DNA of 63,967 nt, filler included, from Stramenopiles sp. TOSAG23-6 (GCA_900128565.1; 3 parts of 3 records of this genome joined end to end with filler, not necessarily neighbours in it), one strand, 5' to 3'. Counted from the first letter of the whole stretch, positions 11,156 through 49,869 are shown. The notes: generated from the sequence alone by a model not told the origin. Program-made: numbers and translations.

Positions 11156-12599
11156 GTGAAACCTGGAGGTTCTCCAACAAGAGATCACGCCTTGCATATA
11201 TATAATTTTAGCCCTTTGACTACTTGTATAATGTTTACGATTGTGGCAATCTACTTGTTAAGTATTAATCCAGTTGTGTCTTTGATTCGAGTATTCTATC
11301 CAGAGCATATATATGGAGTAAATAGTGGCCGTTTTTTTGGATTATTTTGTTTTTTTCTTAGACATCCTCTCGCAGTTCAAGGGGAAGGGCCGAGTAATGG
11401 CGACGGACTTGCAGCATTAAACGCGTCAGAAACTCTAATTTATCCCATGACACCTCGAGAATTAGAGCTGGGTCCGAGTGATCATGATTACTGGTTAGAC
11501 AGTAAACCTAGATTTCGTGATATGTTCCATGATAAACTGTTCGTTCATCGTTTTTTTAAGTCGCATAATGCGAGCTGTCCAGTTCTAGTTGCGGAAGTTG
11601 AGGAACATAATATAAGAAAAATGTTTGTTGAATCATCTTCATTTCCTAAAAGAATGATTTGGAAACCTCGTTACTCAACGATGGGTTTAGGTGTGGAGCA
11701 TTTTTCTACTTGGAAAAACAAGCAAGCGACGAAATCTAACTCAAGTTGGGCTCCTTCTTCAGACCCTTACATTATTGAAGAAATGATACAATCAACCGAG
11801 TGGGATAAAGTATGTTTTATTTTTTTGAATTTCGAATTTTTTTTTTCGTACCAAATTTTGTACCTAACGATTTTTTTTTACGAAAAAAAAAATATTTTTT
11901 TACAATACATGCTGAATGGTATCGCTTAACAACACTTTTTTCTTATGATGAAGAAACACCAAAAAATGGTTATATTTGGCGTATGCGAAATTCAAAAAAT
12001 GATAACCGTGTTCAAACAGATATTCTTGGTGGAGTGTATTGTATCACTGAATGGCCTACATACGTTTTATTTTTTTTTTTACAAAAAAATCGAATTCTTT
12101 TTTCGTACGAAATTTTGTACCTAACAAATTTAATTTTTTTTTTTGAAATATTTTTCCACAATACACTTATGTAGGCCCAAGAGAGAAGGGTATGTCAGTT
12201 AATCCAAGAACTGGTGAGAAAAAGCCTTTATTACCAGCTGTACATATAGCCCTTAAAAAAGCTGTTGGCTTGGCCATTAAAATGCATCGTAATCTTGGGA
12301 AAGAAATATTCTCTGTTGGTTGGGATTTACTAATTCGTGGATCAGAGCCTGTCTTTATTGAATTCAATATCAATAATGGCGTATGTTTCAATTTCAATTT
12401 TTTTTTTTGAAATATTTTTTTCGTACGAAATTTTGTACCTAACAATTTTTTGTTTGAAATTTTTTTTTTCACAATACATTTTTTTGTTGCCGATCATACT
12501 ATTGAGGAGTGTGAAAGAATGATTTCCTTTTATGGTAAAGAATTTCATGCTAGAGTAAGATCTCAGTTAATTGACTTTGACCATATTAAACAAGAATGA
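11156..12599 (+). CDS. ATP-grasp domain protein (sugar-transfer-associated-like), spliced, start uncertain. Introns 11810-11910, 12060-12166, 12381-12479
   Basis: HDKLFVHRFF, WKPRYSTMGLGV, FSVGWDLLI...PVFIEFN ATP-grasp-like motifs; frame runs to TGA 12597-12599 after removing three inserts. Confidence 0.7.
12060..12166 (+). other. Family intron, AT-AC variant
   Basis: CCTAC|ATACGTTTT...CAATACAC|TTATGTA restores PT-YVGPR. Confidence 0.75.
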
Positions 12600-14194: not shown

Positions 14195-17100
14195 ATGCTG
14201 CGGCAATATGTCAGGATTGTGCCACTATGTAAAAGGTATGGAATAGTAGGACAATCATCGGTGAGTAGTATAGTAAACGCCAAAACCCATGCCTTACGCA
14301 TTCTGCAAAAACGGTTGTTGCATACGGCAACAACACGGAGAGAAGCTACGAAGTTTTATAAAAATGATGGAAGACAGTTTCCTACTAGGCGTCAGCGTCG
14401 TAAGTCGCGTGTTCAAAATAAAGCACGGGAATTACGTCATCATTTAGCGAGTCAAGGCCAACTATCAAAAGTTGATGTATCAAAACACTTTAGAAACTCT
14501 AGAATTGGTTTAGGGAGTTGTGATACGAATAATAATAGCACCATATTACCATATATCAATTATGGAAGAAAGGGGGGAATACCACTAAAGCTTACATCTA
14601 ATCCTTCACATGCTATAAATCTAGATACAATGAAAATGTTACATCGAAATGAAAATGTTGACGTCTGTCTGTATAACATCATCCTTTCTTGTAGTTTTGT
14701 TCCAGAAGACACGCGAAAATTAATAGATCAAATGAAAAGGTATGGTATACAACCTGATATTATTACATATTCAATATATTTAAATCGTTTGTTGGTTTTT
14801 GCTGAATATGAGGAAATAAATAAAATGAGAACAGAAATGAAGAAACATGGAGTTGAAGACGATGAACGATTCTTGAAACTACTCAACATTAGAGATTCTA
14901 GAAATAATGGCTTAAGTCGTTTGAGGACTGCAACTCTACAGAAGTATATTGATCATTCTTGTGAAGATACTCTTGCTCAGGCACATAATCTTTTTAACAA
15001 ACTTTTTGAAACACGTGAAATTTGTCTATATCAATGCAATGTCATGTTGAAAGCTTGTATGTTTAAATTATATATTTCAAAATATATTTCAAAAAAAAAA
15101 ACATTTCATATGAAATCTTTTTTTGAAACTCTTTTTGATGTTTTTTTTCCTATTTTTTTCATCATAAAGTATACTATTTTTTTTCATAAAAAATAATATA
15201 TACCTAACAATTGTTTAGTAAAAAAAAAATATTCTTTTTTTTTTTTTTTTTTTTGTACTAAAATTTGTACCTAACAAAAAAATATATATATATTCTTTTT
15301 TATGATACATGTTTTTGTCCTGAGGATTCTCTTCAGTTATTATCGAGGATGAAACATGCGAAAATTATTCCAAACGAGTCAACGTACAAAACTATATTAA
15401 ATACTTTTGCAATTTCAGGTCGATGGGGTGATGTATATGTATGTTTTATTTAAAAAAAATTTTTTTTAACAAAAAAATCGAATTTATTTTTTTTTTTTAT
15501 AAAAATTTTGTACCTAACAAATTTTCAAAAAAAAATTGAAATATTTTTCCAAAATAAAAAAGTTAGAAAAATCATTCAACACTACGATAACAGAAAATGT
15601 TCCTTTTATTTCAACCATTAGTTTCATGAGAGCACAACAGATTAATTGGTTATATACATTAGGGGCATCAGGTCGGTGGTATGCGAAATGCTTATTACAT
15701 GACCTTATTGACTGTAATGAGGCAAATGGAAATTTGTTTGCTATTTTTATTGAAAATTGTACGTTTTACGGTTTTAGTATGAATTTCAAATTTATTTTTT
15801 TTTATTTTTTTTTTTTATAAAAATTTTGTACCTAACAAATTTCGAATTTAATTTTTTTGTACAATACATGTGGAACAGTTTATGAAGTGGATGAAATTAT
15901 TAAAATCATGAATTTAGAAGGAATACCTCATACCTTTCACTCTATGCATGCATATGTATCACAACTTCTACTGGAATGTCAATATAAAAAGGCACAAAAT
16001 GTGTATCACAATTTCCTACATACTACGAACCCTAACCCTAGCGATACATCGAAACCACCGAACCCTAACCCTAACTCAACTCACCTAACGTCAAATGATG
16101 AGTTATATGAAACCTACTTTAATAGTAAAGAAAAAACTGCTGAATCAAAAATTCCTCTTGAGTATATTCTTGGAGGTAATTATAGTAGTAAAAGTTCACA
16201 ATATAAGAGTGTATGTTTTATATGAATTTCTAATTTAATTTTTTTTTTTGTTTTTTTTTCGTAAAAAAATTTCGTACCTAACAAATTTTTTTAGATTTTT
16301 TTTGAAATATTTTTTCACAATACGCGCATTAAAAGTTATTAATGGATTACGTGAACGACGCTTACGCTCATTTTTGAATTCAAGTGATGTATTCCGACGT
16401 AATCAGGCAAAAGATTTAGCCCTAACCCTATTAGATACTAACCCTAACCCTAATTTATATGGTAAAACCCCTAACCCTAGTGGTAATATCCCTAACCCTA
16501 ATTTGTATGGTAAAACCCCTAACCCTAGTGATAATATCACTGACGCTTTGCAGTATGAAAAATTATCCAAGAGAATCGAAATTCTTTGTTATACAGTATT
16601 ACGTGTTACTGCGGACTGTCCAGAAATGACATATAATTTATATGTATGTTGTACTCATTGAAAACAAAAAATTTAAATTTTAAATTTTAAATTTAAAAAT
16701 TAACATTTTTTTTATATACAAAAATTTGTACCTAACAAACATTTTTGAAATTTTTTTTGAAATTTTTTTTCACAGTACAGAATAGAATATCAAATTGTAC
16801 TCCTACGTATCATAATCATCATACAATGACAATAAGTGACGCATATAAATCTTTATTATCTAAATCTAGATTATTTAGTGATTATTCGTATTTATCAAAA
16901 ATCAATTCGCTTCATGAATCAAGACATGATAACCCTAACCCTAATGTAAGATATGATAACCCTAACCCTAATTCTACAAAGAACTCAAGTTTACTTTCTC
17001 GACGACGTTTGCAGCTATCTTCACTTCTTAAAAGTAAAACAAATCTTGATGTAGGACATATTCCTCTTAATCAGCATTCTTATGAAGGTTTATGTAAAGC

Positions 17101-18210
17101 TAAATATTTAGTTAATTCCTTAACTCTCAATGGTGCAGCTCATGTATGTTTTATTTATTTTTTTTTTAAAACCAAAAAAAAAAAATTGAATTTTTTTTTT
17201 TTTTGGTAAAAAAATTTTGTACCTAACATTTTTTTTATAATTTTTTTTCAAATATTTTTCCAAAATACATGTCACCCACTATAATGTGTTATTATCAGCA
17301 GCACGAAATCCTAACGAATCTTTAGAAATATTTTCTAGAATGAAAAAGGCTTCTATTGAACCAGACTGTAGAACATATACAAATATAGCCAGAACATTTA
17401 TTATATCTGGTTGCCGAAACGAAGCATTTGATGTATGTTTCCATCAAAAAAAAGTTTTTTTTTCGTAGTTAATTTTGTACCTAACGATTTTGTACTAAAA
17501 AAAAAAAAAATATTTTTTCACATGACATGTTTTACAAAATATGTTTAAAAAAGACATTATATTCGATACACAATCCAAGGCTTTGTTAAACGATTTACAT
17601 GTAGGTAGTCAAAGTCTTTCATCTACTCGTACGCGTGTGCTGTCTCGCTTAGTTTCATGGGGTATGTTTTATTTTTTTTCAAATTCGAGTTTTTTTTTCG
17701 TACGAAATTTTGTACCTAACGAAGTTTTTTTGAAATATTTTTCCAAAATACGGGGTACAATACATTGAAAAGGGAACACCATTATTTGTATATAATGTAC
17801 GCAAACGTTATATTTCAGGACCTTTTATAGCCAGTTCAGGACCTATTAGAGCCACCTTAGATTCAAAACAACGTGTAATTGTATGTTCTCATTATGAATT
17901 TCAAATTTATTTTTTTTTTCATACGAAATTTTGTACCTAACAAACTTTTTATTTTTGTTTTTTCACAATAATACATGTAAAATGGGATGAATGTAATTGG
18001 TTTCCCCCAGTATATAAAGTAGTCGGATACAATGTGATTCAAACAGGAATTTTACGTTCGGAAGATTTTGAGGAGTTATTTCATCATATTTATCAACATA
18101 AAAGAAAGTTGAAGAAAAAAAAACGAAAGCATAAAAAACAAAAAAAGAGGAGTAAAAAACGAGCAAAATTTACATCTCTTGGCTCAACAACTTTCGCTTG
18201 GGGCAGATAA
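14195..18210 (+). CDS. PPR-like repeat protein with 9 family introns (15057-15310, 15439-15559/15562, 15759-15869, 16211-16325, 16644-16780, 17144-17270, 17433-17528, 17662-~17753, 17881-17976); ends at 17830 or 18210
   Basis: PPR-like MKRYGIQPDIITYSIYL, MKHAKIIPNESTYKTIL, MKKASIEPDCRTYTNI; exons join in frame (MLKAC-FCPE, AAH-VTHYNVLL, EAFD-VLQNM). Confidence 0.75.
16420..16528. repeat. Interstitial telomere-like (CCCTAA)n tracts inside a coding exon
   Basis: Several aaccctaaccct copies encoding NPNP; similar tracts at 256-327, 16028-16075 and 16931-16971. Confidence 0.8.
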
Positions 18211-21300: not shown

Positions 21301-22741
21301 GCTAGATTTTTATTTTCTTCTAAAGCTTGTGATAGAATATGTATTTTGGAAAAATATTTCACAAAAAAAAATCGTTAGGTACAAAATTTCGTACGAAAAA
21401 TAAATCCGAAATTGAAAAAAAATAAAACATACATAATCACTTTCATCAGACGTTGAAGATCCTGTGATTCCTTCTTTATTTCGTGCTCTTGTTTTCACTA
21501 ATAGCCGCTGTAAAGTTTGTACCTGTGTCCGTAGACGCATTACCTCTGCTGACTCAGCATCGCAGTTTTGAACTGTTTTATTTTGAATATTTCGGGCACG
21601 ATTAGCATATCGTAAACAATTAATCGTTTCATCAAAGTTACTGTCCGCAGGTGATATACATGCAATCATAAGGGTACGACTATTACCTCCGAGTGAGGAC
21701 TGTAAAAGTCTAGTGAGTTTAGAGTCTCTATACGGTACATGTATTTTGGGAAAATATGGTCACAAAAAAAAATCGTTAAATTTTCATAGCAAAAAAAAAG
21801 TAAATTTGAAATTGAAGTGAATGTTGAAAACAAACATGAACAGATTGGCGTTTCTTTTCATCACCAAGTACTGAAATAACATTGCCAAGTGCAAGAAGTC
21901 CTGAATTTATAGCAATTCCTTCATGGAGTCTTTTACCCTCGGCCCCAGTGCGTTTAGAACGTTCACTCCCAGCAAGATCGACAAGCCGTAATGTAGATCT
22001 GCGATAACCAGTATCTCCACTACTATTACTTTCAGTAGTAGCAGCACATTCAATAGTGATATTGAATACGGAATGACTACGAGAAGACTGTGCATTCATT
22101 TTAGTTCCACCTGTGGCTCTTGCCGTCGCTCCTTGACGAAGGCACGCAGCCATGTCTTGAAGTGTTGCAACTTTTTCTTCATGCAGACCTGCCACAAAAA
22201 CAGTTCCAGTGGCGTCTTCTCGAAGTGCTAAAGAATCCCCGGTTGATTTAAGTAAATCGCGTACTTCATCTCTATATAGTTCTAAGTAAGAGCATGTCAT
22301 TGTTATCAAAGGTGGTGATGATTCATCTTGTTTAGCGTTTTCCTCAGCAGCTCGAGAGTATAGATATTCCATAACTCGAGGAATTACTCCAGCATCTTTA
22401 CCCAAGGTTGCAGAATCATTTCTACCAGAAGATTCAAATGAAGTTCCCATTGTATGCGTTTTACCGGAACCAGTTTGACCATATGCAAATACAGTGGCAT
22501 TGAAACCATCGAAGCAACCTGCGAGAATGGGTTTTACACATTGATCAAACACAGTTGCTTGGGTAGACGTTTCAGGTAGTAACACATGGTCGAAAGTAAA
22601 CTTTTTTTTAGCGCCCAGTAACAGAGCTGGTTCATTTGGAACTCCCTCTACACACAATTGTGCCCCTTCGGTGAGCTCATGTTCAAGAAGCGGGCGCACG
22701 CGCACAGCTACACGAACAGAAGCTTGATCCGACATTGTCAT
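18385..22741 (-). CDS. Kinesin-4 family motor (KIF4/KIF21/KIF27-like) with coiled coil and C-terminal SAP domain. Introns 21739-21835, 21339-21432, 18891-18982
   Basis: [38 protein letters not shown] restored across the intron; SAP-like [27 protein letters not shown]. Confidence 0.9.
21739..21835 (-). other. Family intron, GT-AT, in the kinesin HVPYRDS motif
   Basis: CAT|GTTTGTTTT...CCAAAATACAT|GTACCGTATAGAGAC. Confidence 0.85.
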
Positions 22742-23106: not shown

Positions 23107-24839
23107 ATGACGGTGGAAGATAATCCATGTGTGGTGTATGGAGCCCGTTCAGCTATCGTGGCGTTTTGGATCACGTTAAATTCAGAAGCTTCCAAAATAG
23201 ACACCACGAAACTTCTCGAATTACTCGAAACTGAGGATATTGCTCCGGTCTTTGAACATTCATTTAGTTTGAAGGAAGTTTCTTTTGAAAGAAATGGTAA
23301 ACAATTCACAAAGGTTTCGGGTTTCATACATTTTCAAGCGTTCAACCGTCTACAAGTCTGCCAAACTGCTTTAGATATATTACCAGGTTTAGCAACTCTA
23401 ATACATGGATGCGAAAGATTTGAAGTAGAATCGGTTTTCCCCAGTCGATCAGGCACTCGTGATAAGGAACCAATTCATACTATGGTCAGAAATATTCCAA
23501 AGAATGATCGCGAGGCAATGAAGAAATTGAAAAAGAGTATGGTGAAGCAAATTTTTCAAGTAGTTTTTGGCCCTAATTCGAATTCAATTGGGTACATGCT
23601 GAAACTTGCGTCATATATTGCAACACTTAATAATGATGATGTTTCTCTCATGTTGAAGTTGTATGAAAAAAAAAATACCTCGACTCGAATCAACGGATCA
23701 ACTGACGAAAGTACGTTTACCTTCTTTTTATACCTTTTTTTTGTAACTAACAAACATGATGAATTTTGAATTTATTTTTTGCTATTATTTTTATATTTGT
23801 ACCATACCCAAGCTAACTATTGTTTTTACTAAAAAAAATATTTTTCTCAAATATATGTTGCTGGAGAGAATTTGTTGGTAATTTCCTCTCATCCAGAGGT
23901 AATCTATTATTAGAAAAGGCAAGACAAGTTGATAGAAATGACACAATTAATGCATGTTTAATTTTTTTCAAATTCCGTTTTTTTTTGTAAGAAATTTTGT
24001 ACCTAACGATTTGGTTTTGAAATATTTTTCCAAAATACATGCATTAGTAGGCGAAATTGTCAAACCAGCTGGATGCTCTACAGTTCGCGAGCAGTATATT
24101 GCCGGAGTGTTTGATGAACATACAGCCCTGTCTCATTATGGTGTGATGGTGTCTTGGCCTTGTTTCTGTTGTGAAACAAAGCAAAACAGTTCTGTACAAA
24201 ATGATACATTTGAAGAAGGTCCATCTGCCAAGCGTCAGAAAACTGATGAAACTGATGATACATCGATCAAAAAAGATGATACATCCATCAAAAAAGATAA
24301 AGGTTCTGTTACTAATGATGAAAATGGTAAATGTGAGGTTTGCAATCTTGTAGATAGTTTCGATAATTTTGGTGAAAATATTAAAAACTTTTTCGAAAAA
24401 AAATTCTCTGCGTATAGAGTCAAAGTGAAAAATATTACAATGTGTTACAATAGTATGACAGCCATGGTGTATTTTGAGGATTGTACGTTTTCATCATGAA
24501 TGTATTAATTTAATTTTTTTTATAGTTGATTTGTACCTAACAAAAATTAAAAAAAATATATCTCCAAACAATTTATGTTGTCCAGCATTTCAAAGGTTGA
24601 AAATTCGTGGTACTCCTGAATTTATATACACTCCTTCAGTAACTGCTCAAGCTGTCAGTCGTTTAGTACTTGTCGATCCAGAGATTATAGAGGAAAAACT
24701 TCACGATTGTATTACAAATTCGATAAAAAACAAAAAAAAGCAACCTGACGATGATGATGATGATGATGATGAGATGAAACAAACGAAGTCAATCGATGTT
24801 GATGACCTTGGAATTGAGTTTGACACTAGTCGAATAGAT
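23107..24839 (+). CDS. Hypothetical protein, 3'-truncated at contig end. Introns 23711-23856, 23952-24040, 24483-24576, 24840->24914
   Basis: Continuous frame after removing family inserts; no family recognised. Confidence 0.65.
23952..24040 (+). other. Family intron, GC-AT variant
   Basis: AAT|GCATGTTT...CAAAATACAT|GCATTA. Confidence 0.75.
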
Positions 24840-27424: not shown

Positions 27425-28743
27425 CTATTTCTGTGAACGACAACACCCATTTCTCACATCGACAGGACGATGACCTACGATCTTAATATAAGCTTCTTCA
27501 TTTGGTGGAGCTTCGCAGATGATACAAGCAATCCGACTGGAGCAATTAATGCCTAGATCCTGTTTTAAAGATGGCTGAGCTGCGATTGCTAATAACACTG
27601 CTAAGCCAGCAACACCTGACTCCCCAGCGGCAATAGGGTATTTATTGCTTGCAAGGAATCTCATGGATGAACCAACTGTTTCATCAGTTACAGATACACT
27701 ATCTGTTGCACATGGTTTAAGAACTCGCCAAGCAAGAGGGGAAACTTCTGCACAATCTAGACCAGTTTGAATGTATTGTGAAAAAAAAAATTAATAAAAA
27801 AAATCGTTAGGTACGAAATTTCGTACGAAAAAATAAATACATTCGAAATTGAAAAAAATAAAACATACATGGTACCTGTGCTACTCGGCGGACAAACAAT
27901 CATTGAGCCTACTTGTAGACTTCGGAGACAAACATTGGCTTCCGCTGGTTCTACTGTGATAAGTCGAGGTCTAGGCTTTTCTTTTTTAGAATAAAAAGCA
28001 TGAAGATATCCGAAGATTGCACTCGCAAAACCACCTACTCCTGCATTAACGAATACATGAGTTGGCCACTCTTCATTGGCTAACGTAAGTTGCTCAAGTA
28101 TTTCAGATGCACATACACTATACCCAGCACTTATACGAGCAGGTATATCTTCATATCCAGACCATGCGACATCTTGTACTACGTGCCAACCATTACTTTT
28201 TGAGTCTTTGAGACATTGTTTGATGGAGCATTCATAGTTACCTGGTACCCGGCAAATTTTTGCACCAAGCGAACGCATTTTATCAGCTATTTGTTCACTA
28301 ACGCCAGCGTGTAAAAATATTACAGATTTGGCACCACAGCGCTGTGCACCCCAAGCTACACCAAGACCATGGTTACCGGCACTGGCAGTAGATACTGTGA
28401 CTACTGCGTCGTTTTTGGTTGACGAGGCTAAATCTTCAACAGCAAGAGCACCACCCAGAACTTTAAAAGAACCCACCCCAAAACGCAACGACTCGTCCTT
28501 TAGATGCACCGATGCGACACCACAAAGATCTTCTAATTCTCTATTTCGGCTTAAAGGGGTGGCGCAATATTCAGGCCAAGAAAGTATTTGTTTACGGGCT
28601 GCTGTATGAGACGTCAAAGAGACTGTCTTTTCCGCTGAGACTGGGTAAGGGGCTGATAGTGGTTCTGCGGCCGTGTTTACTACATGCTCCACTTTCCAAG
28701 AAGCCGCGATCGATAAATACTCTGCTGGTGTTGCAAAAGACAT
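27425..28743 (-). CDS. Diaminopropionate ammonia-lyase-like PLP enzyme (fold type II). Intron 27771-27868
   Basis: TPL...HLKDESLRFGVGSFKVLGG, TASAGNHGLGVAW, VVQDVAWSGYEDIP, VGGFA, TIQTGLDCAE, AGESGVAGLA. Confidence 0.85.
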
Positions 28744-29047
28744 GATTCAGTGTACAAACTATTTAGAGTGAAGAAATCAAGATGATATTATTCATTTATC
28801 CTATATATAATAATATTTGTTCTTCTTCTTTTGTTACTTTTGCTACTACTCTCGCGATTCGCGAATATTTCGAATGTGATGGCAAGTTGGCAACACGAAA
28901 AAACCGCTCAATTTTTAAACGGGTTTTCGAATCTGAAATCAAATAAATCGAGAGTTCGTTCTTCAAGGATATTATCAATTGCAGATTCTTTTCCTCCTTG
29001 AAATTCTCAGGATTATTCAACGGAATTCATTGCAGAGGAACAAAGGT

Positions 29048-31862: not shown

Positions 31863-32045
31863 ACGTTTCTTGAGACTTAATTAGAAATTGTATGTAAATA
31901 ATTTACTAAACATTTGTTTTTCTTTTTTATATTTTATTCACTTTAGACTGAGAGTATTTCTCAAGAAAATACTCAATCGGAAAACATCGGGGAGTATAAA
32001 GTTGATTCACCGAAAAATGACCAAGCAAAAATTCCTTCAAATGAA

Positions 32046-33212: not shown

Positions 33213-33293
33213 TTCGTTTTATAAGTCACAAAGTAAATGGTCTACTTTATATGGTATTATTGAATATAAAAATTTTTATATATTATATTACAT

Positions 33294-34328
33294 TTATTGA
33301 TTAAATTTTTGGTCAAAAGGTAACACTTTATTTGTAGAACATTCAGGTAACACTTTATTTGTAGAACATTCAGGTAACACTTTATTTGTAGAACATTCAG
33401 GTAACACTTTATTTGTAGAACATTCAGGTAACACTTTATTTGTAGAACATTCAGGTATGCAATTGAAAATAGTAATTTTACATTGTTCGTCTATTTCCTT
33501 AGTTGGACACGAATTCTTGGTTTCAGTGATACATGTTTTGAAGAAAGACTGTTTCATATGAAGTAAAACTTCCATGGGATATACTGCAGTTCTATACATC
33601 ATATTATTTTGTTCCATAAAAGTCACAAGTTTAGGTTCTATTAGATAAATAAAGCAGAGAGTTGATGCTTGAAAACACCAGAAGGAACCTGCTTCAGCTC
33701 CTATGACTATAAATAATGTTACGGCAACCCATATAGAAGCTGAAAATGTAATAGGAGTTAGTGTGCTGTGTTGAAACAAAAACAAACTAGCACTGTTAAA
33801 ACCCCAACAACTAAACATGACTATAGCCCAGTACCAATGGTTTTCCATAAATTCCATGCAAGGCCAAATCTGATGACCCTTTGGTCCAATTGTTGTACAT
33901 CGCTGTAACCCAAACCAATTAAATAAAATAGAAAAAACATTGAAAATTAAAAAAGTAAAGGAGCTGAATGCGAAAAATATCTTCGGTTCTTGTAGCTTGG
34001 TAACACACATCGACTTTTTGTCTCTGTGAGGCTCGACAATGTTCAGTGTTTTATTTTTCAGACTTTGAATAACACATAAAGAGAACCAAAATGGTACACA
34101 CGAAACTATGCACTGAACTACAATACTCAGAAATGTATTTGTTTCCGTGCAACCATTACTTGAGTCAATTTCAACCCAAATAAGCAATTGTACAAACTCT
34201 TGCAGTAATAAAGGGAGGTGAAGGGCAGCATTTAACCTATCATAATGCTGGTTTCGTCTTATCAAATATAAGAGAACGACTGTTTCTAATGCACAAAATA
34301 TTGCTGTTACTTCGCTTGACCAACACAT
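33294..34328 (-). CDS. Multi-pass membrane protein (MCWS...QEFVQ...GSFWC type) with C-terminal PECSTNKVL repeats
   Basis: 344-aa ORF with about 7 hydrophobic segments. Confidence 0.7.
   Translation of the reverse strand: MCWSSEVTAIFCALETVVLLYLIRRNQHYDRLNAALHLPLLLQEFVQLLIWVEIDSSNGCTETNTFLSIVVQCIVSCVPFWFSLCVIQSLKNKTLNIVEPHRDKKSMCVTKLQEPKIFFAFSSFTFLIFNVFSILFNWFGLQRCTTIGPKGHQIWPCMEFMENHWYWAIVMFSCWGFNSASLFLFQHSTLTPITFSASIWVAVTLFIVIGAEAGSFWCFQASTLCFIYLIEPKLVTFMEQNNMMYRTAVYPMEVLLHMKQSFFKTCITETKNSCPTKEIDEQCKITIFNCIPECSTNKVLPECSTNKVLPECSTNKVLPECSTNKVLPECSTNKVLPFDQKFNQ
33318..33457. repeat. Coding tandem repeat, 27-bp unit, about 5 copies
   Basis: aggtaacactttatttgtagaacattc repeated. Confidence 0.9.
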
Positions 34329-34576
34329 TCAATATTTTCTATTATTTGACTCACTCATTCGAATGTAAAGTACATGACTCGAAATGTCGACAAAGTGAAA
34401 AATTTGTGTCTAACCGTTCTTTGTCCAGACGTTGAAAACGATGATCAGATCGTTACGAATCGAATAAATACAGTTACGCATTAGCTAGTATAGCATCATC
34501 TCCCTTGATAGCATACCCAACAACCGTAACCCAACCACTATTCTATTAAATAAGTAAATGAATTGATTTTAGGATC

Positions 34577-36943
34577 ATGATCAATTACCGTTCTTTAACT
34601 TTAAATTCTCCGACAAAGTCATATCGAAGACGTGAAAGACGTGAAAGAAAAAAACAAAGACAACAAAAACGACGGAGTGACGTAGCAGCTACGAAAATTC
34701 AAGCACTTTGTCGCGGAAACAAGGGACGAAAACTGTTTTTGAAGCTAAAAAGAATAAAGTGGTGTATAGATAAATTAGCCGCCACGCAATCAGAAAAGCA
34801 GCCGAAATGTGAAACTGTATTTATGGGGAAATTTCCGGTTCCGTTACACAGGTCGCCAAATAATAGGTCAAGGGATAGAAAGAAGTTATCGGATGAAAAG
34901 ACTCAATCCCCAGAATCTCATAACCAGTCGCCAAAATCTCCAGTGTCAGCAGATTCAACGACTACATCACAAAAATCTCATAAGCAGCCCCCAAAGCATC
35001 AGCATTCGCAGAAATTAACAGAAATACTTAAACTTCGGATACCTATAAAAGTGCATAAACTCATGCTACGAGATTACAAAAATAAATCATTATACAGAAA
35101 ACCAAAATCTAAGTTGTCAAGGGATACAAGGACTCACCCACAAAAACCACACAATCAGAAGCTATCGGATACAAAGATTGCATCACAAGAATCTCATAGC
35201 CAGTTGCCAAAATCTCCAGTGTTAACGGATTCAAAGACTGAATCAAAAGAATCTCATAAACAGTTGCCAAAGCACCAGCAACAGCAGAAATCTAAAAAAA
35301 TACATAAACTTCGGATACGAGAATACGCGTCAAAACACCAGCAAGTTACAGTTAGTAATACAACGTACTTCTTCGGCTCGGCCAAGCAAAGCTTCCTAGC
35401 GAATTATGAAAGTCAACGCCAACATATACTCAAAGTTAAACAATTTTCCGCTGCACTACAGACAGAACTTCTACAAAAAATACATCAAGCTAAGAAGGAT
35501 AAACTTGACACCCTTTACCAAAAGCATATTTCCGCTATTGAAGATATTTGGAAATCCATGATGAAACGTAAATACGGAAATGAAAACTGGAAGCTGGAGA
35601 TACGAGAAAGTTTGGTTGTAGCGGCTTCAATGTATATAGATAAGGCACTTGACAGAGAAAGTTTCACTGTCGCTTTTAGTACATTAAAAAACTATCAATG
35701 TTTAATGCGAAACATTCTCGTGAAAACATTTCAATTAGATACTTCATATATGTATGTAATATCCCAAAACACCACAGTCACTGCAGCATATTCCAAACAT
35801 ATGTGTATGATCAAATTACTCTATGAAAACCTAGTAGAAGAAACCAAGAACATGTTTAGCCTTGCATTTGGCGCGGTAAACTCTGAGAGAACAAAATTCT
35901 TTTATGGGAATGTAAATTGTTCGCAAATTTACAAGGTACACCAGAAAATTTTTGAAAATATTTTAAATTTTAGTAATGTAGTAGAAGCTATTCGAGCAAC
36001 AAAGACGGAAAATACAAAGTTGATGGATGTTGCTATACACGTTGTAAATACAATCCATGTATCATCTTTAAGTGGGATACTGAATGATTCGGTCGCTCCG
36101 ACGAATTTGGACGGCGTTTTACTCGAATCAAGATTAAAACTGACGCTCCGGAGTATTGATAGCACCACAATAAATATGGAAAATGCCGTTAGATTCTTAT
36201 CCCAAATACAGCAAAATATGGATGAAAGAGGTTTCCTACTAATTGGATATAAAAATCATGAGTCTCTGCATGAAGCTATTCGGTTAAATTTGAAAAATAA
36301 CTGTTTCCAGATTGAGTTTGACGTGTTACATAGAGAACCAGTAACACATTATCTGAATGATACACATATCGTCACAGGAAAAATACAGGGTGCTATAAAA
36401 TCCATAAAATATTACATTTCAGGCTTTTTTGAAAAACCTTTGATATCTATTTCATCAACTAAAGTTGCTACAATTCAAAGCAGAGAAAGTTGCATGAAAC
36501 GCATCATTTTGAAAAAAACAATTTTCTCCCAATCATTTTCATTTGACAATGAATGGCATAGAAGAAACTGTTCTCTCTCAGCGGCAATCCTCCGTACATT
36601 TCGGAATAAACAATTTACATACCATTTTGTGCAGAAGCTCGTAGCAATATCTAAAAATCATTTTATGATTGTGGAACTTATTAATCATTTAATTCCATTG
36701 AATTTTTCGATGGAAAATTCTGCCGTTAATTATCTGCAAGATATTCTAATGACTTACGCAGAGGATACCTTCCAATCATCAATAAAATATATTACCGATG
36801 ATGAAACAAACTTGCCAGAAATTCTGAAAATGCTAGAAAAATGTATCAAGTTAGACAGAATAAAATTAAAAAGTTGTAAAGTTTTGAAATACGAAAAACA
36901 GAATGGATTTTTTCTAGGAGATATCGATGTATTGATTCAGTAA
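34577..36943 (+). CDS. Hypothetical IQ-motif protein with an internal duplication of about 55 aa
   Basis: AATKIQALCRGNKGRK IQ motif; KLSD...ESH.Q.PKSPV...SHKQ.PKHQ...KLRI occurs twice. Confidence 0.7.
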   Translation: MINYRSLTLNSPTKSYRRRERRERKKQRQQKRRSDVAATKIQALCRGNKGRKLFLKLKRIKWCIDKLAATQSEKQPKCETVFMGKFPVPLHRSPNNRSRDRKKLSDEKTQSPESHNQSPKSPVSADSTTTSQKSHKQPPKHQHSQKLTEILKLRIPIKVHKLMLRDYKNKSLYRKPKSKLSRDTRTHPQKPHNQKLSDTKIASQESHSQLPKSPVLTDSKTESKESHKQLPKHQQQQKSKKIHKLRIREYASKHQQVTVSNTTYFFGSAKQSFLANYESQRQHILKVKQFSAALQTELLQKIHQAKKDKLDTLYQKHISAIEDIWKSMMKRKYGNENWKLEIRESLVVAASMYIDKALDRESFTVAFSTLKNYQCLMRNILVKTFQLDTSYMYVISQNTTVTAAYSKHMCMIKLLYENLVEETKNMFSLAFGAVNSERTKFFYGNVNCSQIYKVHQKIFENILNFSNVVEAIRATKTENTKLMDVAIHVVNTIHVSSLSGILNDSVAPTNLDGVLLESRLKLTLRSIDSTTINMENAVRFLSQIQQNMDERGFLLIGYKNHESLHEAIRLNLKNNCFQIEFDVLHREPVTHYLNDTHIVTGKIQGAIKSIKYYISGFFEKPLISISSTKVATIQSRESCMKRIILKKTIFSQSFSFDNEWHRRNCSLSAAILRTFRNKQFTYHFVQKLVAISKNHFMIVELINHLIPLNFSMENSAVNYLQDILMTYAEDTFQSSIKYITDDETNLPEILKMLEKCIKLDRIKLKSCKVLKYEKQNGFFLGDIDVLIQ

Positions 36944-37495
36944 GTGAAGGGTGTCAACTCGCATTGTCCAACTGGCAGCCCTCAGCTGCCCGCTACTGTA
37001 GGGTAAGAACCACTCATATGCTATAATAAACATTTTTTTTCCAAGTGAATTAGATATTTCGATGATTTTTGCATTATAGTATATATTTCGATTTTACGTT
37101 TTTATTATATGAAACACCCGATTTGAGATTTGGGAAATTAAATTAAGGATATTGACATGTCAATATTTTGAAAATTCGATTTTTTATTATAAGAAACGCC
37201 CGGTTTGGGATATTAATTAAGTACGTATACTGACACGAATTCCGTGTCAATATATTGATAACAGTTAATTATAAAAAACAAAATAACGACAAAACTTGAA
37301 TAAAGGGAATCTGTGATTTACAGATGAAATTAAAATTAATAATTTCGTGTTTTTTTTTGTGTCGACCCCGCAGCTGATGAACTCAACACAATTAAATGCT
37401 ATTATTCGGTCGCGCATGAATCAAATCAGATTGGATCTGATCATTCATTCATTCAACATAAAAAAGAAAAACAAAACAAGAAAAAAGTTCTTAAA

Positions 37496-40290
37496 ATGGC
37501 ATCATCTAAAGGCACAGAAGCGGCATGGGTTAGGACCCAGAAGCGTGTATTTCTTCGATGGACGAATCTGCAGCTTCGTCGATCTCGTTCCAGCGTCAGC
37601 GATTTGGACACCGGGTTCAAAAGCGGTGTCCAACTTGTCAAATTGTGCGAAGCAATCTCTGGAGAAAAGCTTCCAAAGTATAACAAGACTCCTAAAATGG
37701 AAATTCATTGTTTAGAAAACTTGGGTACGGCCATGAAATGGCTCAATTCCAAGGTAAAGCTGGTTGGTATTGGATCACGTGGTATCTATGAAGGTGATGA
37801 GAAACAAGTGTTGGGGTTGTTGTGGACTCTCATTCTTCGGTTCCAAGTTCAAGAAGTTGAAATCGATGGAGTCTCTGGTAAAAAAGGACTTCTACTATGG
37901 GCCCGACGTAGCTGTCAGCACGTCGATCCAAGCATCAAGGTGCGAAATTTTGATAACTCTTGGAAGTATGGAAAAGCTTTCTGTGCATTGGTCGCATGTT
38001 TCAAACCTAAACATGTTGATTATTCGTCGTGTCTTTCTATGACTGATGAAGAACGCTGTACATTTTTGTTCAAAGTTGCTGAAAAGGAATTAAATATCCC
38101 TCCTTTATTGGAGGTAGAAGACCTATGTGATGGTATCCCAGATGAAAAAGTTGTTATGATGTATGTTTTATTTTTTTTCAAATTTGAATTTGTTTTCGTA
38201 CGAAATTTTGTACCTAACAAATTTTAGTTTTTTTTTTTTTCAAATATTTTTCCAAAATACATGTATGTCAGTGAATTTTTCAAAGCCTTTAGTTCCTTAA
38301 GCAAGGAAAAGGCAATTGTAAAAGGTATTGCGTCTGCTATTGACATGACTTTACGTCATGACAAGTTCATTAACTCTTATGAAAAACAAGCAGTTGCGTG
38401 TATGTTTTTTTTTTTTTTCAAATTCGATTTTTTTTATAGGAAATTTTGTACCTAACAAATTTTAGATTTTTTTTTTAAATATTTTTCCAAAATACATTGA
38501 AGTCGTGGTTGATTGAAAAAAGTGGAGAGATGTCTTCTACTACTGGTATTGGTGTCAATGAGGAGGAAGTTCATCGTAAAATTGAAGACTTTCACCATTA
38601 TTGCAAAGAAACAAAGCTCGAACGCCGAAGTCAGTTGTACGGCTTGAAAGTTTTATTAAGTGCTCTGCAGTCCTCACAGACTCGAAACAAACGACCCGCG
38701 TATCAACCACGAGAGGACATTGAGTATAGTCAATTAGAGAATCAATTTACATCTCTTCTTTCCCTCGAAAATGAATATATCAAACGACTCAGCAGTACAT
38801 ATAAGCTTTATTGTAAATATAGAGTGATGTATTTACGATTGGAGGCTAAAGCTACTCAGCTGAGAGAGTGGGTGAATGCACGCCGTTCAAAATTACAAGA
38901 ATTGTGGGCGGAAGTTGATTCATTATGCTCCGAAGCGATAGCCACTCAATTGGTGAAATTAAATGAATCAAAAGATTTGTTGGACATTGTTTTATTTGAA
39001 TATTCTCAATACCAACCAATCCTTTCCCAAATGAGGAAAATTGACAAGGACATTCAAGAACCTGCAGAATTGGCATCTCCAGCGAAATTACTTGTCGAAA
39101 ACTGTAAAAGTGAAGTAGTAGCACTCATAAAAGAAGTGCATGATCGCGTTTCTGTCAACTCCGCTTTACGAGAAAAGGCGGAATCAATGCAAGGTATAAG
39201 TAAGCAATACAAACGGGATGCAGATAATTTTTTGTTTGATATGAAACATTTTTCCGAGTCTTTTCGAGAACCTTGTATTGATGAAACTGTTTCTGCAATT
39301 GAAAATCATATCCAAGTAACGAAACAAAACTTTGAGACGAATCTTTCGAGTCAACAGGCTCGTTTAAATGATCTGAAAGGAGTATCTGAAGTACTTAAGG
39401 CTGCTGGATTCGGTGATGAATTGCTATCACCAGCTCTGAGGGTAGTAAATTTAAGTAAGATTTTATTGGATTTTGAAGAAAGCGGGAAAAAAGCCATCGA
39501 GGCGTTATCTCAACAACTAACCGACAGTGCGCAGAAAGATAAACTTCGCATTGAATTTGCTACATTGGCTAATCTTATCCGTGAAAAGCTTCATGCTCAT
39601 GCTGCTAAATTTAAAATGACAGATCATACTAATGAACCTTTACCTGTTCAAATGAAACTTCTTTTAAGCTTACATTCAGATTTTCTTGAGGTGAAAGAGC
39701 TATTCGATCAATTGGAAGAGCTGAATGGTCGGTGCAGTGAAGCAAAGATTGTAACAAATGACTATACACCAGAAACATTTTATTCTTTAGTTGCATTGCA
39801 GTCTGAAGTAAACAAAATGTTTGATCATTCAAAAGAAAGTATTCAAGCAGCTATGGATGGAAATCAAAAACTGTCCCCTGAGCAACTTGCTGAGATTCGA
39901 AGTGTATTTAAATCATTTGATTCCGACAAAGATGGGAATTTGACTTTGAAAGAATTCCATTCTTGTACAACGTCTCTTGGACTTGTACTGTTGAAGGCAG
40001 ATGTTGAGAAGAAGTACAAATCCGCAGCTAGTAAGAGTGGCAATCTCGATATAGCAGCGCTTACAAAAGTACTGGAAAGGTTTTGGTTGTCGTCGTCATC
40101 AAAGAGTGATGTCATTGATGGGCTCGGGGTCTTATCGAAAGGAAGTGATTTGACTGCGGAAAAGATAGCAGCATCGTTTGAAGAACCACAACTTTCATTT
40201 ATCTTGGAGGGTTTAAAATTAAGTAGTGATAAGACTGTTTCGAAAAACGCTGATATTTTAGCATTTACAGAAGAGATGTTTAGCCGATAA
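37496..40290 (+). CDS. Alpha-actinin-like protein (2 CH domains, spectrin-like rod, EF-hands). Introns 38161-38262, 38400-38497
   Basis: QKRVFLRWTN, LGLLWTLILRFQV, LLLWA, PDEKVVMMYVSEFF, FKSFDSDKDGNL. Confidence 0.88.
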
Positions 40291-40454
40291 TTTATGTGCA
40301 AAGTAGATTATTATAATGAAGTAATAAAATAAAAACATATTTCTATTGTTGTTAAATATTACTTTATATATAAAACTTTCACTCATCAATGAATCTCCCA
40401 TTAGATTTCAAAAATTCTTCATTCATCAATGGATCTCCCATTAGATTAAAACTT

Positions 40455-43400
40455 TCACTCATCAATGGATCTCCCATTAGATTTCAAAAATTCTTCATTG
40501 ACAAAATTGAAAACACAAATTGGACATGCAGAAGAAATGTGTGACTTTCTAAACTCGAAATCTAAAAACGAAGAAGTTAGTGGCAACGCAGCAAACCTTC
40601 TATTATTTCTATATATAATAAAGTTTGATAAACGATATTGTAATTCTGGTAATATTTTTGTGGTGAATTCTTTTTTTTTAAATTTGTGACCACACGTAAA
40701 TATTATTATTTCCCCCGAAGTAAAATCAAAATTAGGAGATCCTTCTTCAACATTAAAAGTATCTTTTACGTCATCCATAGACAAATGTAATTTAGCTGTC
40801 GTTGCATTTGCTTCTGCAACGCGTAGGAAAGCATCCATACTCAACGTTTCTATTTGGTCTACATCTTTATCTGAATCATTTTTTTTCTGTTGACTATTAA
40901 CTTGATTTCGAACTTTAGTAATGAGTGAAGAAGCTGTTTCTTCTTGAATGTTATCTACATCTTTACTATTCAATACACTATTCGTTTGTTTATTTACATC
41001 ATATTTGACGCCTCGGAACTCTTGATTAGATGAATCCTGACATTCACTATTCGATATAGGATGTGAACCCACTGAAATAAATGCACGTCCGCCAACGCCG
41101 CCTCCTCCACATAAAGGTTTGACATTTTTAGTATACCAAAATGAAGAAATTTTATCTGAAGAGTTTTCATACTCCTCATTTTTATCCATGTTTTTCCCTT
41201 GACTCATTAAATGACATTGAATATCAATCCATTTATCATCTAAAGCCTTCTTAGATGACACAACAGAAAAATCAGTTGTCGGTGGATAATGACCTTTACA
41301 ATTTTTATCCAAAGTAATTCTAGTAGCAAGTTGGTGTAAATGAAAACGCGAAACGTCTAACAATAAAGACACAGAGAATGGCAAAATATGACAATCATAA
41401 TTTTCTTTTTTTGCATTCTTCGAAAACATATCGTATTGGATATTATCGAATAAAATAGTGGAAAGGAGCGGGCCATATCGTTTCATTTCAGACTGAATTA
41501 AATTTTCTAATGGATGCAAAGGTAACGCATTTGCTTTCCAAAATTCAAGAGTATATGAAAAGATTGTCGTCGTAAATATATCAGAATTTTGGGTGACTCT
41601 AATGAAACGATGCAACAATTTGAGAACATCATTTGCTATATGCAAACGTCTTTGATCACCATTATTCGTTGATTCATTGATACTGTCTAATATATGTTGT
41701 TCAACTATTGTATTATTTGGGGTAGTGGTTCGAAGGTTAGCGGTAGTGCTCTGTATTTTCTGAAGTTTACAAAGAAGGACAAGATGAGGGGCATCAATCA
41801 TATCGAATAAAGTCGCAGCAAAACTCCAGTTATAGTTGTTAGTACACATTGCTGAATCAAATGCAATATGTGGTCTATGTATTGTGGAAGATATATATTT
41901 TTAGTAGTAAAAACAATATTACGTACAAAGTTCGGTACGAAAAAAAAAGTTAAAATTTTGGAATTGAAAACGTACAAAGAAACCCTTGAAATTCTTTAGA
42001 AAATCCATTAAATTTTGCTGCAATTTTGTATTTTTTGTGTCTATATGACTTTGTTTAAATAACATACAAATCTTAGTTTGGACGAGACATTCGCAGAGAA
42101 TCATTTTTTTCTTCATACGAAATTCTCTATGAGACGAATTTCGAATTGGTTCATTTACTTCTTTTGATCTTGATATTTGAAACTGAGAGATTGAATCGTA
42201 TATAATTTCATATATATGCATCAACGTTGGTTCATCTAATAAATGGATCTGAGACCGTAGCCAAAGAGAACTTTCATATAATATATCTGCTGTATTGATT
42301 TTTCTAAGAGAGGTACGTTTTTTGGATTCAGTATTAAAAGATAAATATTCATTACTTTTTTCATTACATTTGTATGGCAATTCTTCATTGACTTTAACAG
42401 TTGTAGTTTTAGGTAAATTTCGTAATATTCGTCGCTGAGTTTTTATGGACAAAGTGGAAAAAATGGGAAGTGATAATTTTGATAAAAGATGTGAACTATG
42501 TCCAGATTTTTCAATCAATTGCACAGACTTGTGGCTTAAATGTAGGAAACCATACACACCGCACAACGATAATGCTACTTCTGGGATATTATAATACAAA
42601 GAGATTGCAATTGCATTATCGATACGGCCACATTGAACTAGAATATTTATAGCGCTTTCTGCATTGCAGCTGAGAACACTCGCAGCGCCACATTCATTCT
42701 CTTTCAAATCGAGAAAACTATTTAGGTATTGATGGACAGAAAGTTCTCCTACGCACGTTTGTTTTTCATCTTCATCATATATAGGAGGAGTTACTTCATA
42801 TACAACTCCACGAAGCAGTAGACCTAAAAGAAGCATCGCAGCTTCTGAAATAATACTTGGTGAACATCGAGATACATCAACGTTTTGTAAAGAATTCCAT
42901 AACCAACTAATAGCAACCCAAAGAGGGTCATTTGCCTTTGTATATAAATATTGTTTTGCTTCATGTTTTTCTCTTATATGCATTTTGATGAATAAATCAA
43001 TTTCTTCTTTTGAAGGAATATCCGTGAAACGATCTTCACTAGGACAAAATCTATCTCCGTCTATATTTGAAACACGAAATCTCTTTGACATACTAAAAAG
43101 TCTCTGTGCATCAAATCCTCTTGAATGCATTGATGTACAATATTTTGCAGCTTCATATAAAGTTGAAGATGCATCAATACCATGACAGGAAGCGATGACA
43201 TACGCTTCACTGAAATTCATACCATTTAGAGTATACTTGATAAATTCAGATCTGGCATAGGCTTTAGAGGGTGACCGTAATTCATACATGGAACTTTCTG
43301 TCCATATAATGTATTTTGGAAAAATATTGCAAAAAAAAAACTTAAATTTGTTTTCTATGAAAATTTCGTATGAAAACTAAAAAAAAAAAAAAANAATTTA

Positions 43401-45665
43401 GACTAAAAATTGAAAAAAAATAAAACATACATGACGGTTTTACAAAATTCATTTTTGTCATTTTTCAAATCAGAATTTTCTGTATGCTTAGTATTATATA
43501 GAGAATACTTTATATTCGATTGCATGTCTGATTCATTTATATAGACTGGACGTAGTCCACACACCCGTTCGCCTGGAGGAATATTGAATGATTGTACAAC
43601 GTCCAAAGAGGAAAAATCTACATTTTTCAATTTAGTCAATGTAGTCAATTTAGTCGAGGATTGAGAAGCTGCAAGATTCGAAAGAATTAAAACTTGGTGT
43701 TGTATATTTCGATTTGATTCGTTATTTGTTTCGTTATTTATTTCTCTTTCGGTAATCATCACTGTGTACCTACCACAATGTATTTTGGAAAAATATTTCA
43801 AAAAAAAAAAAACTTCGTTAGGTACAAAATTTCGTACGAAAAAAAAAACGATTTTGAAAAAAAATAAAACATACATAAAGTACGAGTAATTCACCATCAT
43901 GAATACAATCAATATTTTTCATGTTGTTATTTTCATCTTCAATTTGATTCAATGTACGTACAACACGAGAGGTGTCACATGGCACATTTGAAATTGAACT
44001 ATTTGTTTTTGTACCAAATTTCGTACCTACCGCATTTCTAATTTGTCCATTCCTTGGTATTGACGCAGGATAATATTTGAAACGTAGATCTTCGATCACA
44101 ATTTTCTTAGGCAAAGCATCCAAGAATTGACTTTGTGAATTGAATCGATCAATACATCCATATAATCGAAATCTAAATATAAATGTATTTTCAACATTTG
44201 TACTTATTTTCGTACTTATTTTTGTACTTATTTCAGCATGTTTTCCGTTCTCCACAGATGTTTCTATACCAAAAGCACACGGTAACTTCTTCAGTATTGG
44301 TACATTTGCATTAAACATTGTAGCAAAATTTTCAGTTATATTAATGAATATTGGTATATTACACATTTTCCGCCGCTCTGGAAACATTTCTTTCTCTTTA
44401 GACAGAGAATCCGTACCAATTTTCGTACCTAATGTATCAAAAGTATTTGTAAATACACGATTTAATTTCGTTGTTTTGAACAAAATTTCCAAATGATCCG
44501 CATCGTCACAAAAATTTGAGGATCGAAATGTGTTTGGTACGAAATTTGGTACGGATTTGTTAGGTACGAAATTTGGTACGGATTGTTCTACAACAATAAA
44601 ATTTCCACGCTCCAAAAGAACACGCCATAAGTTTCCAAGTGAAGTACCAATTATGAAATAATGAAGTCGAGTATTATAAAGAGAATTACTATTTTCTATA
44701 TTATTAATATAAAATCTAGAGTAAGAAATCTGTATTGTGAAAAATTATTTCCAAAAATGTGATTTTGTTTTTTGTTAGGTACAAAATTTCGTACGAAATG
44801 TTTTTTTACAATTGGTAAAACATACTTTCTCACCTGGAGATAATTGTATTCGTCGATGTAACATTGAATTCTTATCTACATTTTTCCAACTCAAATCTCT
44901 ATTTTGTATCATATCAATAAATATGACATAACCTGAATTAGTCACTGCTATTGCATATTCTTTGAGGGTTACATTCAAAGACTCATTATTTTTGAATTTC
45001 TTTTTGGTATAGATTTTTCCATGTAATCTATCGTTCTCAAAAGTATTTGTACTTCTGGTATACCAAGGCTTCCACCATTTCAAAATCACCACTCGTCCAA
45101 ACATAATATCAATATTAACTATGTGACATAGACCCTTCATTTCATTCATTTTGTGAAAATTTTCTTTTTCAGTAGTTGTAGAAAATGGATTGTTCAAGAG
45201 GGAGGAACTACTCAAGTTATTTGACAAGTCAAGATTGTTATTCCTATGAAAATGTGTACTGGAAGATGCTTCTTTTACAATTTGCAGGACATAAATATAA
45301 CCATCAAATGAACTACACAACATGTGACAAGCATTGACTGGTTCCAAGTCAATAGCAACTAAAGTGTATCGTGGGTCAGGGAACCATTTCAAACTTCGTT
45401 TAGTAACCTCTCTACTAAAAAAGTTAACAAAACGGAAAATTAAATGGTTATTAGAACAAACCAAAACAGTGACAATACTATCATTGTGAAAACCATTTTC
45501 AACCAATACAATACGTACACGCGTGTTTGGTGTTTCTTCAGTATCTTTGCCCTGCTGCAGCACTAAAGAAACAGGCTCAACGCCATAATCAGAATTTAGA
45601 TCTTTGGGGTCTACTTTAGAAGAAGAAGATGTGTGTACGCGTAGTACACGGGATAGAGAGAACAT
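40455..45665 (-). CDS. Large hypothetical protein: beta-propeller-like N-terminus, helical middle, C-terminal Zn-finger-like FTCGH...CPIC. Introns 44730-44825, 43778-43874, 43309-43430, 41877-41975
   Basis: Five ORF pieces join in frame after insert removal; similarity to vesicle-tethering subunit architecture is inference only. Confidence 0.65.
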
Positions 45666-45976
45666 TGGCCTACCAATTCAACTACAACCCCAACATATGC
45701 ATAGTTCAAAGTCAATGTGAAAATATGATTATTATTTCGCGATCTGATCTAATATTTTCGACTTTATCGGAGAGCAAACTAACAACAACAGTCCAAGAAG
45801 ATCATCACAGAAAAAGATGACTGACTGATGGTGCCATCAAAGCAAAAAACGAATTTATATATTTCATTTCAAATCGAAATTTGAATTTTTTTCTTTTTGA
45901 ATCTGAAATCGCTGTTCCTACAATAAAAAAAATTCAAATCGATTTTTTTCATTTTTTTCCAAGTTATAAAACAAAC

Positions 45977-49769: not shown

Positions 49770-49869
49770 NNNNNNNNNNNNNNNNNNNNNNNNNNNNNNN
49801 NNNNNNNNNNNNNTTAATTAATTAANNNNNNNNNNNNNNNNNNNNNNNNNNNNNNNNNNNNNNNNNNNN
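49770..49869. other. Artificial contig linker N44-TTAATTAATTAA-N44
   Basis: Same spacer as at 24915. Confidence 0.95.

Follow-up and report, generated by a model that had tools for sequence, protein, structure and literature searches.

The DNA analysed here (the window, 63,967 nucleotides including filler) comes from Stramenopiles sp. TOSAG23-6 (GCA_900128565.1) and consists of three contigs joined by N linkers (24915–25014 and 49770–49869). An alpha-actinin-like gene in the middle contig is interrupted by an AT-rich insert of 102 nt. Reading through the unspliced insert leads to a stop codon, a cut at its internal AG shifts the frame into stops, and excision from GT to AT yields PDEKVVMMYVSEFFKAF, with PDEKVVM-M-YVSEFFKAF encoded across the junction. 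The actinin CH domains match the upstream exon right up to the intron site; with the last actinin exon as query, no homolog was found. The insert belongs to a large family of introns. Its parts and further copies in the window are given in Table 1.

Table 1. The intron of the alpha-actinin-like gene, its parts and other family copies in the window (slashes in sequences mark junctions).
Position	Strand	Feature	Basis or gene
38161..38262	+	family intron, GT..AT, 102 nt	alpha-actinin-like gene
38159..38160	+	first AT of the duplicated pair, exon end; predicted to pair with U1 A9-U10	sequence, copy-by-copy match at -2/-1, U1 5' end
38161..38168	+	putative donor GTATGTTT, carried by the element; also left inverted-repeat arm	U1 complementarity
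38206..38218	+	conserved core TTTTGTACCTAAC with branch-like CTAAC	exact matches across the assembly
38226..38227	+	skipped AG, 3' of the branch motif	a cut there breaks the frame
38254..38260	+	right end of the element, AAAATAC; right inverted-repeat arm	consensus of 239 copies
38261..38262	+	second AT of the duplicated pair, putative 3' splice site	frame restored by a cut 2 nt past ATAC
38263..38268	+	exon start GTATGT, donor-like by coincidence; lengthens the repeat to 8 nt	repeats of at least 8 nt near expectation
38400..38497	+	next family intron; exon end GT, acceptor AT	same actinin-like gene
23952..24040	+	GC-donor copy, AT/GCATGT..ATAC AT/GCAT	
21739..21835	-	degenerate copy, CAT/GTTTGT..ATAC AT/GT	kinesin gene, by Pfam
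17662..17753	+	copy flanked by G-runs; an exception, the frame requires a cut of 91 or 94 nt	
12060..12166	+	copy with matched non-AT pair and AT donor, AC/ATACGT..ATAC AC	
16644..16780	+	copy with canonical AG acceptor; AG retained in the exon gives a stop	
27771..27868	-	copy whose GT..AT cut restores the T/xxxGL of homologs	PLP-enzyme gene

The core word TTTTGTACCTAAC has 7,547 exact matches in the 21-Mb assembly, as opposed to one for the reversed control; because the assembly contains duplicated contigs, the number of distinct copies is lower. Palindromic or duplicated contigs, by which raw counts are inflated, include C2, C4, C13/C14 and C2757–C2760 of G000. The window and the fetched contigs, 959 kb in all, gave 458 motif hits, from which a set of 239 copies was parsed. 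Duplicates, hits containing N and those lacking a donor or end that could be scored were dropped, and copy boundaries were scored from intron bases alone, flanks excluded. The 239 copies yield a single consensus, GTAYGTTT ... CGTACGAAATTTTGTACCTAAC ... TATTTTT(T/C)CA(C/A)AATAC, and have internal sequence in common beyond the splice signals; the donor is GT in 216 of them. Their bodies are all distinct and partly low-complexity. Since all 239 are distinct, the burst is not recent, and there is no sign of current activity.

Several features of the copies and their surroundings may be added. Copies of the GT..GT and TT..TT kinds often belong to a subfamily that starts GTAYGTTTTATATGAATTTCTAATT (e.g. 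C37:965–1057 and C213:3261–3355, G000 contigs); this subfamily looks more uniform and is possibly younger, with only seven members in the parsed sample. On L099 (991–1178) two family copies stand back to back with zero exon between them (..ATCCAT/GTACG..), as might result from insertion of one into the other's junction, or from recursive splicing. Copy density is very uneven: other genes carry one copy per 100–200 nt and Prp8 carries none, the family intron being absent over about 2,500 assembled codons (L097 1225–8651). Short telomere-like CCCTAA/TTAGGG doublets are scattered across the window (259–1759, 16028–16958, 54310, 54667 and elsewhere); 81 were counted in the 959 kb, some apparently within coding frames (NPNP).

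Of the 189 testable copies, 169 have an open frame once the element is excised together with the two nucleotides past ATAC, and 20 fail. Alternative cuts at +1 and +3 keep the frame open in 31 and 45 of the 189. The frame alone is blind to a cut shifted by two bases relative to GT..AT and we therefore used the 50 copies in which the two pairs mismatch. Mismatched copies include those at 38400–38497, 30363–30446 and 11810–11910 and the intron of a DHX37-like gene on G000:C208. When the junction was masked, retention of the downstream pair led to a stop in five informative cases, two of which have doubtful ends; retention of the upstream pair led to none. In the three genes whose alignment covered the site, the residue specified by the upstream pair matches the homologs: the Gly of MT[DE]G in a DHX37-like helicase, the Leu of PIL in a DEAD-box helicase, and a His in glutamate-cysteine ligase. 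A fourth comparison, at a kinase junction, did not reach the threshold for a match. In 33 of 44 mismatched copies codon usage speaks for the downstream pair, a bias that would equally follow from the AT richness of the genome and from drift of the exon copy away from an ancestral AT. The downstream copy of the pair appears to act as the acceptor and the upstream copy to remain in the exon.

The acceptors thus defined in the 239 copies are AT (183), AG (13), TT (11), AC (8), GT (8), AA (7), CT (4) and others (5), some of the rare calls being miscalled ends. The terminal AG of U2-type introns is found in the 13 copies only, and 66 of the 239 skip an AG that lies between the branch motif and the acceptor. 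A public gene model, P0001, identical to a window protein and bearing a MAST-3 stramenopile label, forces different splice sites on the copy in the PLP-enzyme gene and so loses seven residues that are kept in homologs.

Contigs of four sequencing runs (X7, X8, X13 and X3) on positions 26000–45900 contained no usable splice joint among those listed; the 15 listed were all repeat artefacts from DNA runs, a further 215 lying beyond these. No empty-site alleles were seen in the same contigs. Depth in the element bins, which does not represent copy number, exceeded the unique depth by a factor of thousands in X3 and X8 and of only a few in the polyA runs X7 and X13. This depletion in polyA runs relative to DNA is a weak hint of splicing. 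Because no splice junction was observed in RNA, splicing is inferred here from DNA and protein.

To assess target-site duplication, the 5' junction of each copy was compared with its own 3' junction, shuffled partners serving as the null; a locus-specific test of the same kind is described in a passage of PMC9860276. In the 239 copies identity was found at −2 in 187 (152.3 expected, z 10.3) and at −1 in 204 (183.1 expected, z 8.7). The remaining 18 of the 20 junction positions gave z values of at most 2.5, the next being 2.2. A duplication of exactly 2 bp is strongly supported. Matched pairs other than AT were present in 28 copies (TT 8, GT 6, AG 4, AC 4, CT 3, AA 2, GG 1). Genome-wide, written as exon end..intron end, TT..TT was found 86 times and GT..GT 59 times, and the crossed combinations GT..TT and TT..GT four times and twice. 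After removal by eye of duplicated contigs, TT..TT/GT..TT/GT..GT/TT..GT stood at about 68/4/48/2 (p 1e-26). AG..AG (7) and AG..AT (11) are too few genome-wide to judge a conversion of AG acceptors to AT. The target is palindromic, with C/AT/G preferred (C at −3 in 35%, G at +1 in 47%). In held-out degenerate copies the signal was weaker: one set (n 36) matched weakly at −2 (p 0.06) and not at −1, the other (n 156) not at −2 and at −1 with p 0.003. This counts against the duplication, though decay and miscalled ends are expected to weaken the match.

A previous sequence-only reading had proposed a transposon-like insertion and had staked it on duplicated flanks, and the duplication indeed lies far above chance. 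The longer direct repeats that it emphasised are in place, namely ATGTATGT at 38159/38261, ATGCAT at 23950/24039, GGGGTA at 17659/17752, and CATGT at the two junctions of the kinesin copy on the minus strand, but as a class they show no excess. Among the 139 AT/AT copies, in-register repeats of at least 4, 5, 6 and 8 nt number 48, 21, 10 and 2, with 48.2, 21.3, 8.3 and 1.3 expected (p 0.59, 0.61, 0.28 and 0.37). Such repeats arise because the target tends to C/AT/G and the donor begins with GT. The GGGGTA repeat is out of register, and the copy that it flanks breaks the rule of a cut two nucleotides past the element, its frame fitting 91 or 94 nt and not 92. Exon ends in the 239 copies are AT in 153 (background 9.6%), with T at −1 in 211 and AG in six. 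For the window, 21 AT, 31 T at −1 and no AG had been counted in 37 copies, close to the 18, 25 and 0 in the 30 copies of our relaxed list. The proportions were reproduced, but the set of 37 was not recovered and the claim that AG never occurs holds for the window only.

Regarding the ends of the element, the inverted repeat noticed earlier is real but short. GTAT/ATAC are followed by a T-run and an A-run with a bulge, so that 4 nt pair perfectly and more, such as the 6 nt or above of a clear MITE-type repeat, only when the bulge is allowed (covariation z at most 2.5). The termini had been given as TG..CA; the actual ends are GT..AC. TG..CA, present in 165 of the 239 copies, is seen only with an AT pair, because one base comes from each duplicated AT. 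Accordingly, none of the 28 matched non-AT copies has TG..CA, and 20 of them have GT..AC. The ends pair in 34–39 of 100 predicted folds, a count without shuffled control. Covariation between copies (z at most 2.5) lends no support to an end-to-end RNA stem as a splicing device, and the flanks of the 239 copies do not covary as inverted pairs. What stands of the earlier proposal is the transposon-like insertion with a duplication supplying a splice site; the long repeats, the TG..CA termini and the stem find no support.

A stretch of 645 bases (L024 1–645, G000:C1146) contains the genes for U5, U2, U1 and U4 snRNA in head-to-tail order on a single strand, and U6 is found on C3740. The sole U1 snRNA found scores 54.1 bits, below the Rfam cut-off of 69.5 (E 7.5e-12), and the assembly contains no other credible U1 at E<=10. 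It starts with AAACGUACAUG, the exact complement of CAT/GTACGTTT. Its 5' end reads AAACGUACAUGG where the Rfam consensus has AUACUUACCUGG, and the complement of this end, CCAT/GTACGTTT, is the family junction. The three changes U2A, U5G and C9A face +7, +4 and −1, respectively. At these positions the 239 copies have T in 235 (+7), T in 139 and C in 93 (+4), and T in 211 (−1), T and C at +4 both pairing with G5. Over the 239 copies, this U1 can form on average 10.0 of 11 pairs, and canonical U1 7.3. The donor of the actinin-gene intron is complementary to U1 nt 1–8, with a G-U at +4. A match between U1 and the donor junction of the family, as judged by predicted pairing, is strongly supported. 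The AT at the exon end would have two causes that are inseparable in these data, target preference and pairing with the changed U1.

The other snRNA signals, i.e. U2 (GUAGUA), the U5 loop and the U6 ACAGAGA box, are all canonical, and the CTAAC core is presumably a branch motif readable by the organism's own U2. Donors of the U12 type have the motif RTATCCT, to which the family donor GTAYGTTT does not conform. Searches for U12 and U6atac gave no match, a weak result since the assembly is incomplete. Prp8 is near-identical to the human protein over residues 1496–1612 (human numbering), where few positions differ, and therefore offers no obvious explanation there for the acceptor change. One gene resembles U2AF2; in a weak search, none of 15 zf-CCCH matches was recognised as U2AF1.

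Seven family copies lie in the glutamate-cysteine ligase gene as far as it is assembled (L040). None of 80 foreign loci of this gene (39–50% identity; most show no intron in it and may be transcripts, and 21 have breaks or stops elsewhere) holds the family motif. Junctions 207 and 416 are passed without an insert of at least 10 residues in all 80 and junction 481 in 79; the 57 loci covering junction 522 are also without insert, and junctions 148, 336 and 379 fall in poorly aligned parts. In this one gene the intron positions appear to be lineage-specific; they are not shared with other eukaryotes, sharing with distant ones being what the sequence-only reading would have taken against itself. 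Matched non-AT copies are nearer to the consensus than non-AT/AT copies (p 0.042, one-sided), in keeping with a gradual change of acceptors to AT.

Internal exons shorter than 70 nt number 2 of 142 as compared to 37 expected, a deficit that insertion into linker DNA or a minimum exon size would give. Exon lengths peak at 80–160 nt, and a periodicity scan isolated no nucleosome period. Out of 132 copies, 98 lie in sense and two in antisense orientation; reading is open in sense in 214 of 236 copies and in antisense alone in three. This near-absence outside the coding sense is unlike a free DNA transposon and counts against the explanation that we favour below. An autonomous transposase with matching ends, a search for which the earlier reading had suggested, was not found among six families searched in the fragmented assembly. 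Among the loci read, matches to PF13359 (5), PF13358 (2) and PF03184 (1) lacked ends of the family type; PF13613, PF02992 and PF01359 gave no match, the latter two with silent controls. Open DDE transposase-like frames of the three matching families, likewise without such ends, are located on L118, L119, L122, L123 and L208.

We consider it probable that the family is a non-autonomous, DNA-transposon-like introner with a 2-bp duplication, which takes its acceptor from the duplication and is removed by the major spliceosome with a changed U1. An element of about 100 nt, GTAYGTTT ... TTTTGTACCTAAC ... AATAC, would have spread to thousands of sites. As the junctions show, insertion left an exact 2-bp duplication, mostly at C/AT/G and also at TT, GT, CT, AC and AG. 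The first copy would stay exonic and the element be removed together with the second, as indicated at the DNA and protein level; the original mRNA would thereby be restored and the acceptor would be whatever pair had been duplicated. The cuts would be made by the major spliceosome, U1 with U2A/U5G/C9A pairing with CAU/GUAYGUUU, a complementarity that is evident and whose use is presumed, and U2 may read the CUAAC core. The 3' cut would fall 2 nt past the conserved AATAC end and not at the first AG. AT would be favoured at this site, and non-AT acceptors would therefore drift to AT over time. Mobilisation is supposedly due to a DDE-type transposase with a 2-nt stagger, now lost or unassembled; this DDE mechanism and the mode of acceptor choice are the putative parts of the scheme.

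A more far-reaching version is possible, although we do not think it likely. AG recognition would have been dropped genome-wide and the proto-splice site moved from AG/G to AT/G by one U1 change, C9A, with A9-U10 reading AU at both the exon end and the intron end. If true, any element duplicating 2 bp would become a perfect intron at any AT, and the system would be a naturally occurring form of the old U1 crossover model, in support of which a suppression result in fission yeast has reportedly been obtained. A passage of PMC4603926 describes the crossover model as disproved or wrong.

Spread through RNA, by reverse splicing or a transcription-linked process, with the 2-nt duplication arising from staggered repair and no DDE transposase involved, seems unlikely to us. 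It would account for the near-exclusive occurrence of copies in the coding sense, for the very short inverted repeat and for the failure to find a partner transposase, and U1 G11 together with the usual exon +1 G would also select C/AT/G. However, antisense copies can be purged by selection alone in a gene-dense genome, and a duplication fixed at 2 bp in a palindromic target, along with the deficit of short exons, fits a dimeric DNA cutter acting in linker DNA. RNA-based families proposed in a passage of PMC9860276 are without duplications. The match between the two junctions might also be maintained by splicing, if both cuts slipped by 2 nt, giving an NN-GT..AC intron, and only agreeing or AT-ending copies were tolerated. 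In matched copies both cuts yield the same mRNA, matches persist despite diverged bodies, and the preference in codon usage (33 of 44 mismatched copies) is for the downstream pair. Yet the five stops created by keeping the downstream pair, the conserved Gly, Leu and His that require the upstream pair, and the pairing of U1 in canonical register, with a cut at AT/GT, render this improbable; no mechanism for comparing the two ends of an intron is known to us.

Two further explanations fare worse in the light of the same data. The one drawn from the sequence-only reading, in which duplications are longer and variable, the termini are TG..CA and a terminal RNA stem serves non-spliceosomal or stem-guided excision, appeals to eye-catching repeats of 6–8 nt, to TG..CA in 165 of 239 copies and to ends paired in 34–39 of 100 folds. 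We regard it as very improbable, since longer repeats equal the null, TG..CA occurs in 0 of 28 matched non-AT copies, the flanks lack inverted-pair covariation and U1 complementarity points to the spliceosome. Finally, ancient introns might have had their signals homogenised as U1 changed, without any mobile origin. The change in U1 and the distinct, partly low-complexity bodies agree with this, but the internal sequence common to the copies beyond the splice signals, the locus-specific 2-bp match, the absence of the positions from other eukaryotes (one gene) and the lack of introns in Prp8, as far as assembled, make it hardly credible.

The family, probably mobilised as a DNA element, is a real introner with new features: a 2-bp duplication, an AT acceptor and a matching U1. 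It comprises many similar introns with a locus-specific duplication, a splice site derived from it with the mRNA restored, as judged at the DNA and protein level, and lineage-specific positions in one gene. It joins three things mostly met separately: mass intron gain by a mobile element, loss of the near-universal AG acceptor and a matching U1 change. Because the acceptor copies the target site, natural variants (AT, TT, GT, CT, AC, AG) exist in one intron background. These allow tests of 3' splice-site choice without AG, of the resemblance between exon end and intron end, and of the part played by the spliceosome, which may have adapted to the element or have acted as a filter on it. For this lineage, gene models built on AG acceptors go wrong at many introns, P0001 being the one case shown. 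In a passage of PMC12130899 the expected 3' sites are AG and AC only, and unsupported odd families are discarded. Searching titles and abstract beginnings retrieved no paper on a GT-AT family in the lineage.

Among known systems, the introners of the Chrysochromulina type and IE1 of Micromonas pusilla, as described in parts of PMC9860276 and PMC11282704, are likewise repeated short introns with a locus-specific duplication, an element-borne donor, an acceptor from the duplication and unchanged mRNA length. There the duplication is 3–4 bp and supplies AG, whereas here it is 2 bp and mostly AT. A 2-bp AT duplication is described, in a portion of PMC4482050, for ISL2EU elements (PHIS superfamily), whose target is A/AT/T, as opposed to C/AT/G plus many non-AT sites here. 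Membership in ISL2EU is contradicted by the flanks (C 35%, G 47%) and the 28 matched non-AT pairs, and no partner of this type, which would encode a DDE-HTH-THAP transposase and a YqaJ protein, was found with PF13359 (five matches without matching ends) and PF13613 (none). Fritillaria borealis, as treated in parts of PMC13326754 and PMC11282704, also has mostly non-GT-AG introns with inverted repeats and duplications, presumed to be removed by the major spliceosome. Its introns have the ends AG-AC and AG-AT, and the adaptation is given in a part of PMC13326754 as U2AF duplication and an m6A change. The non-GT donor of the Fritillaria type is not a feature of the present family, in which the donor is GT (216 of 239), the acceptor alone is relaxed and the U1 sequence itself is changed. 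Altered U1 5' ends that follow an atypical genome-wide donor are known from Entamoeba, Mastigamoeba and Physarum; the changes described in a section of bioRxiv 10.1101/2022.06.08.495308 face intron positions. Here, in contrast, there are three U1 changes, and one of them, C9A, faces exon position −1, is mirrored by the change of the acceptor from AG to AT and is tied to an introner family.
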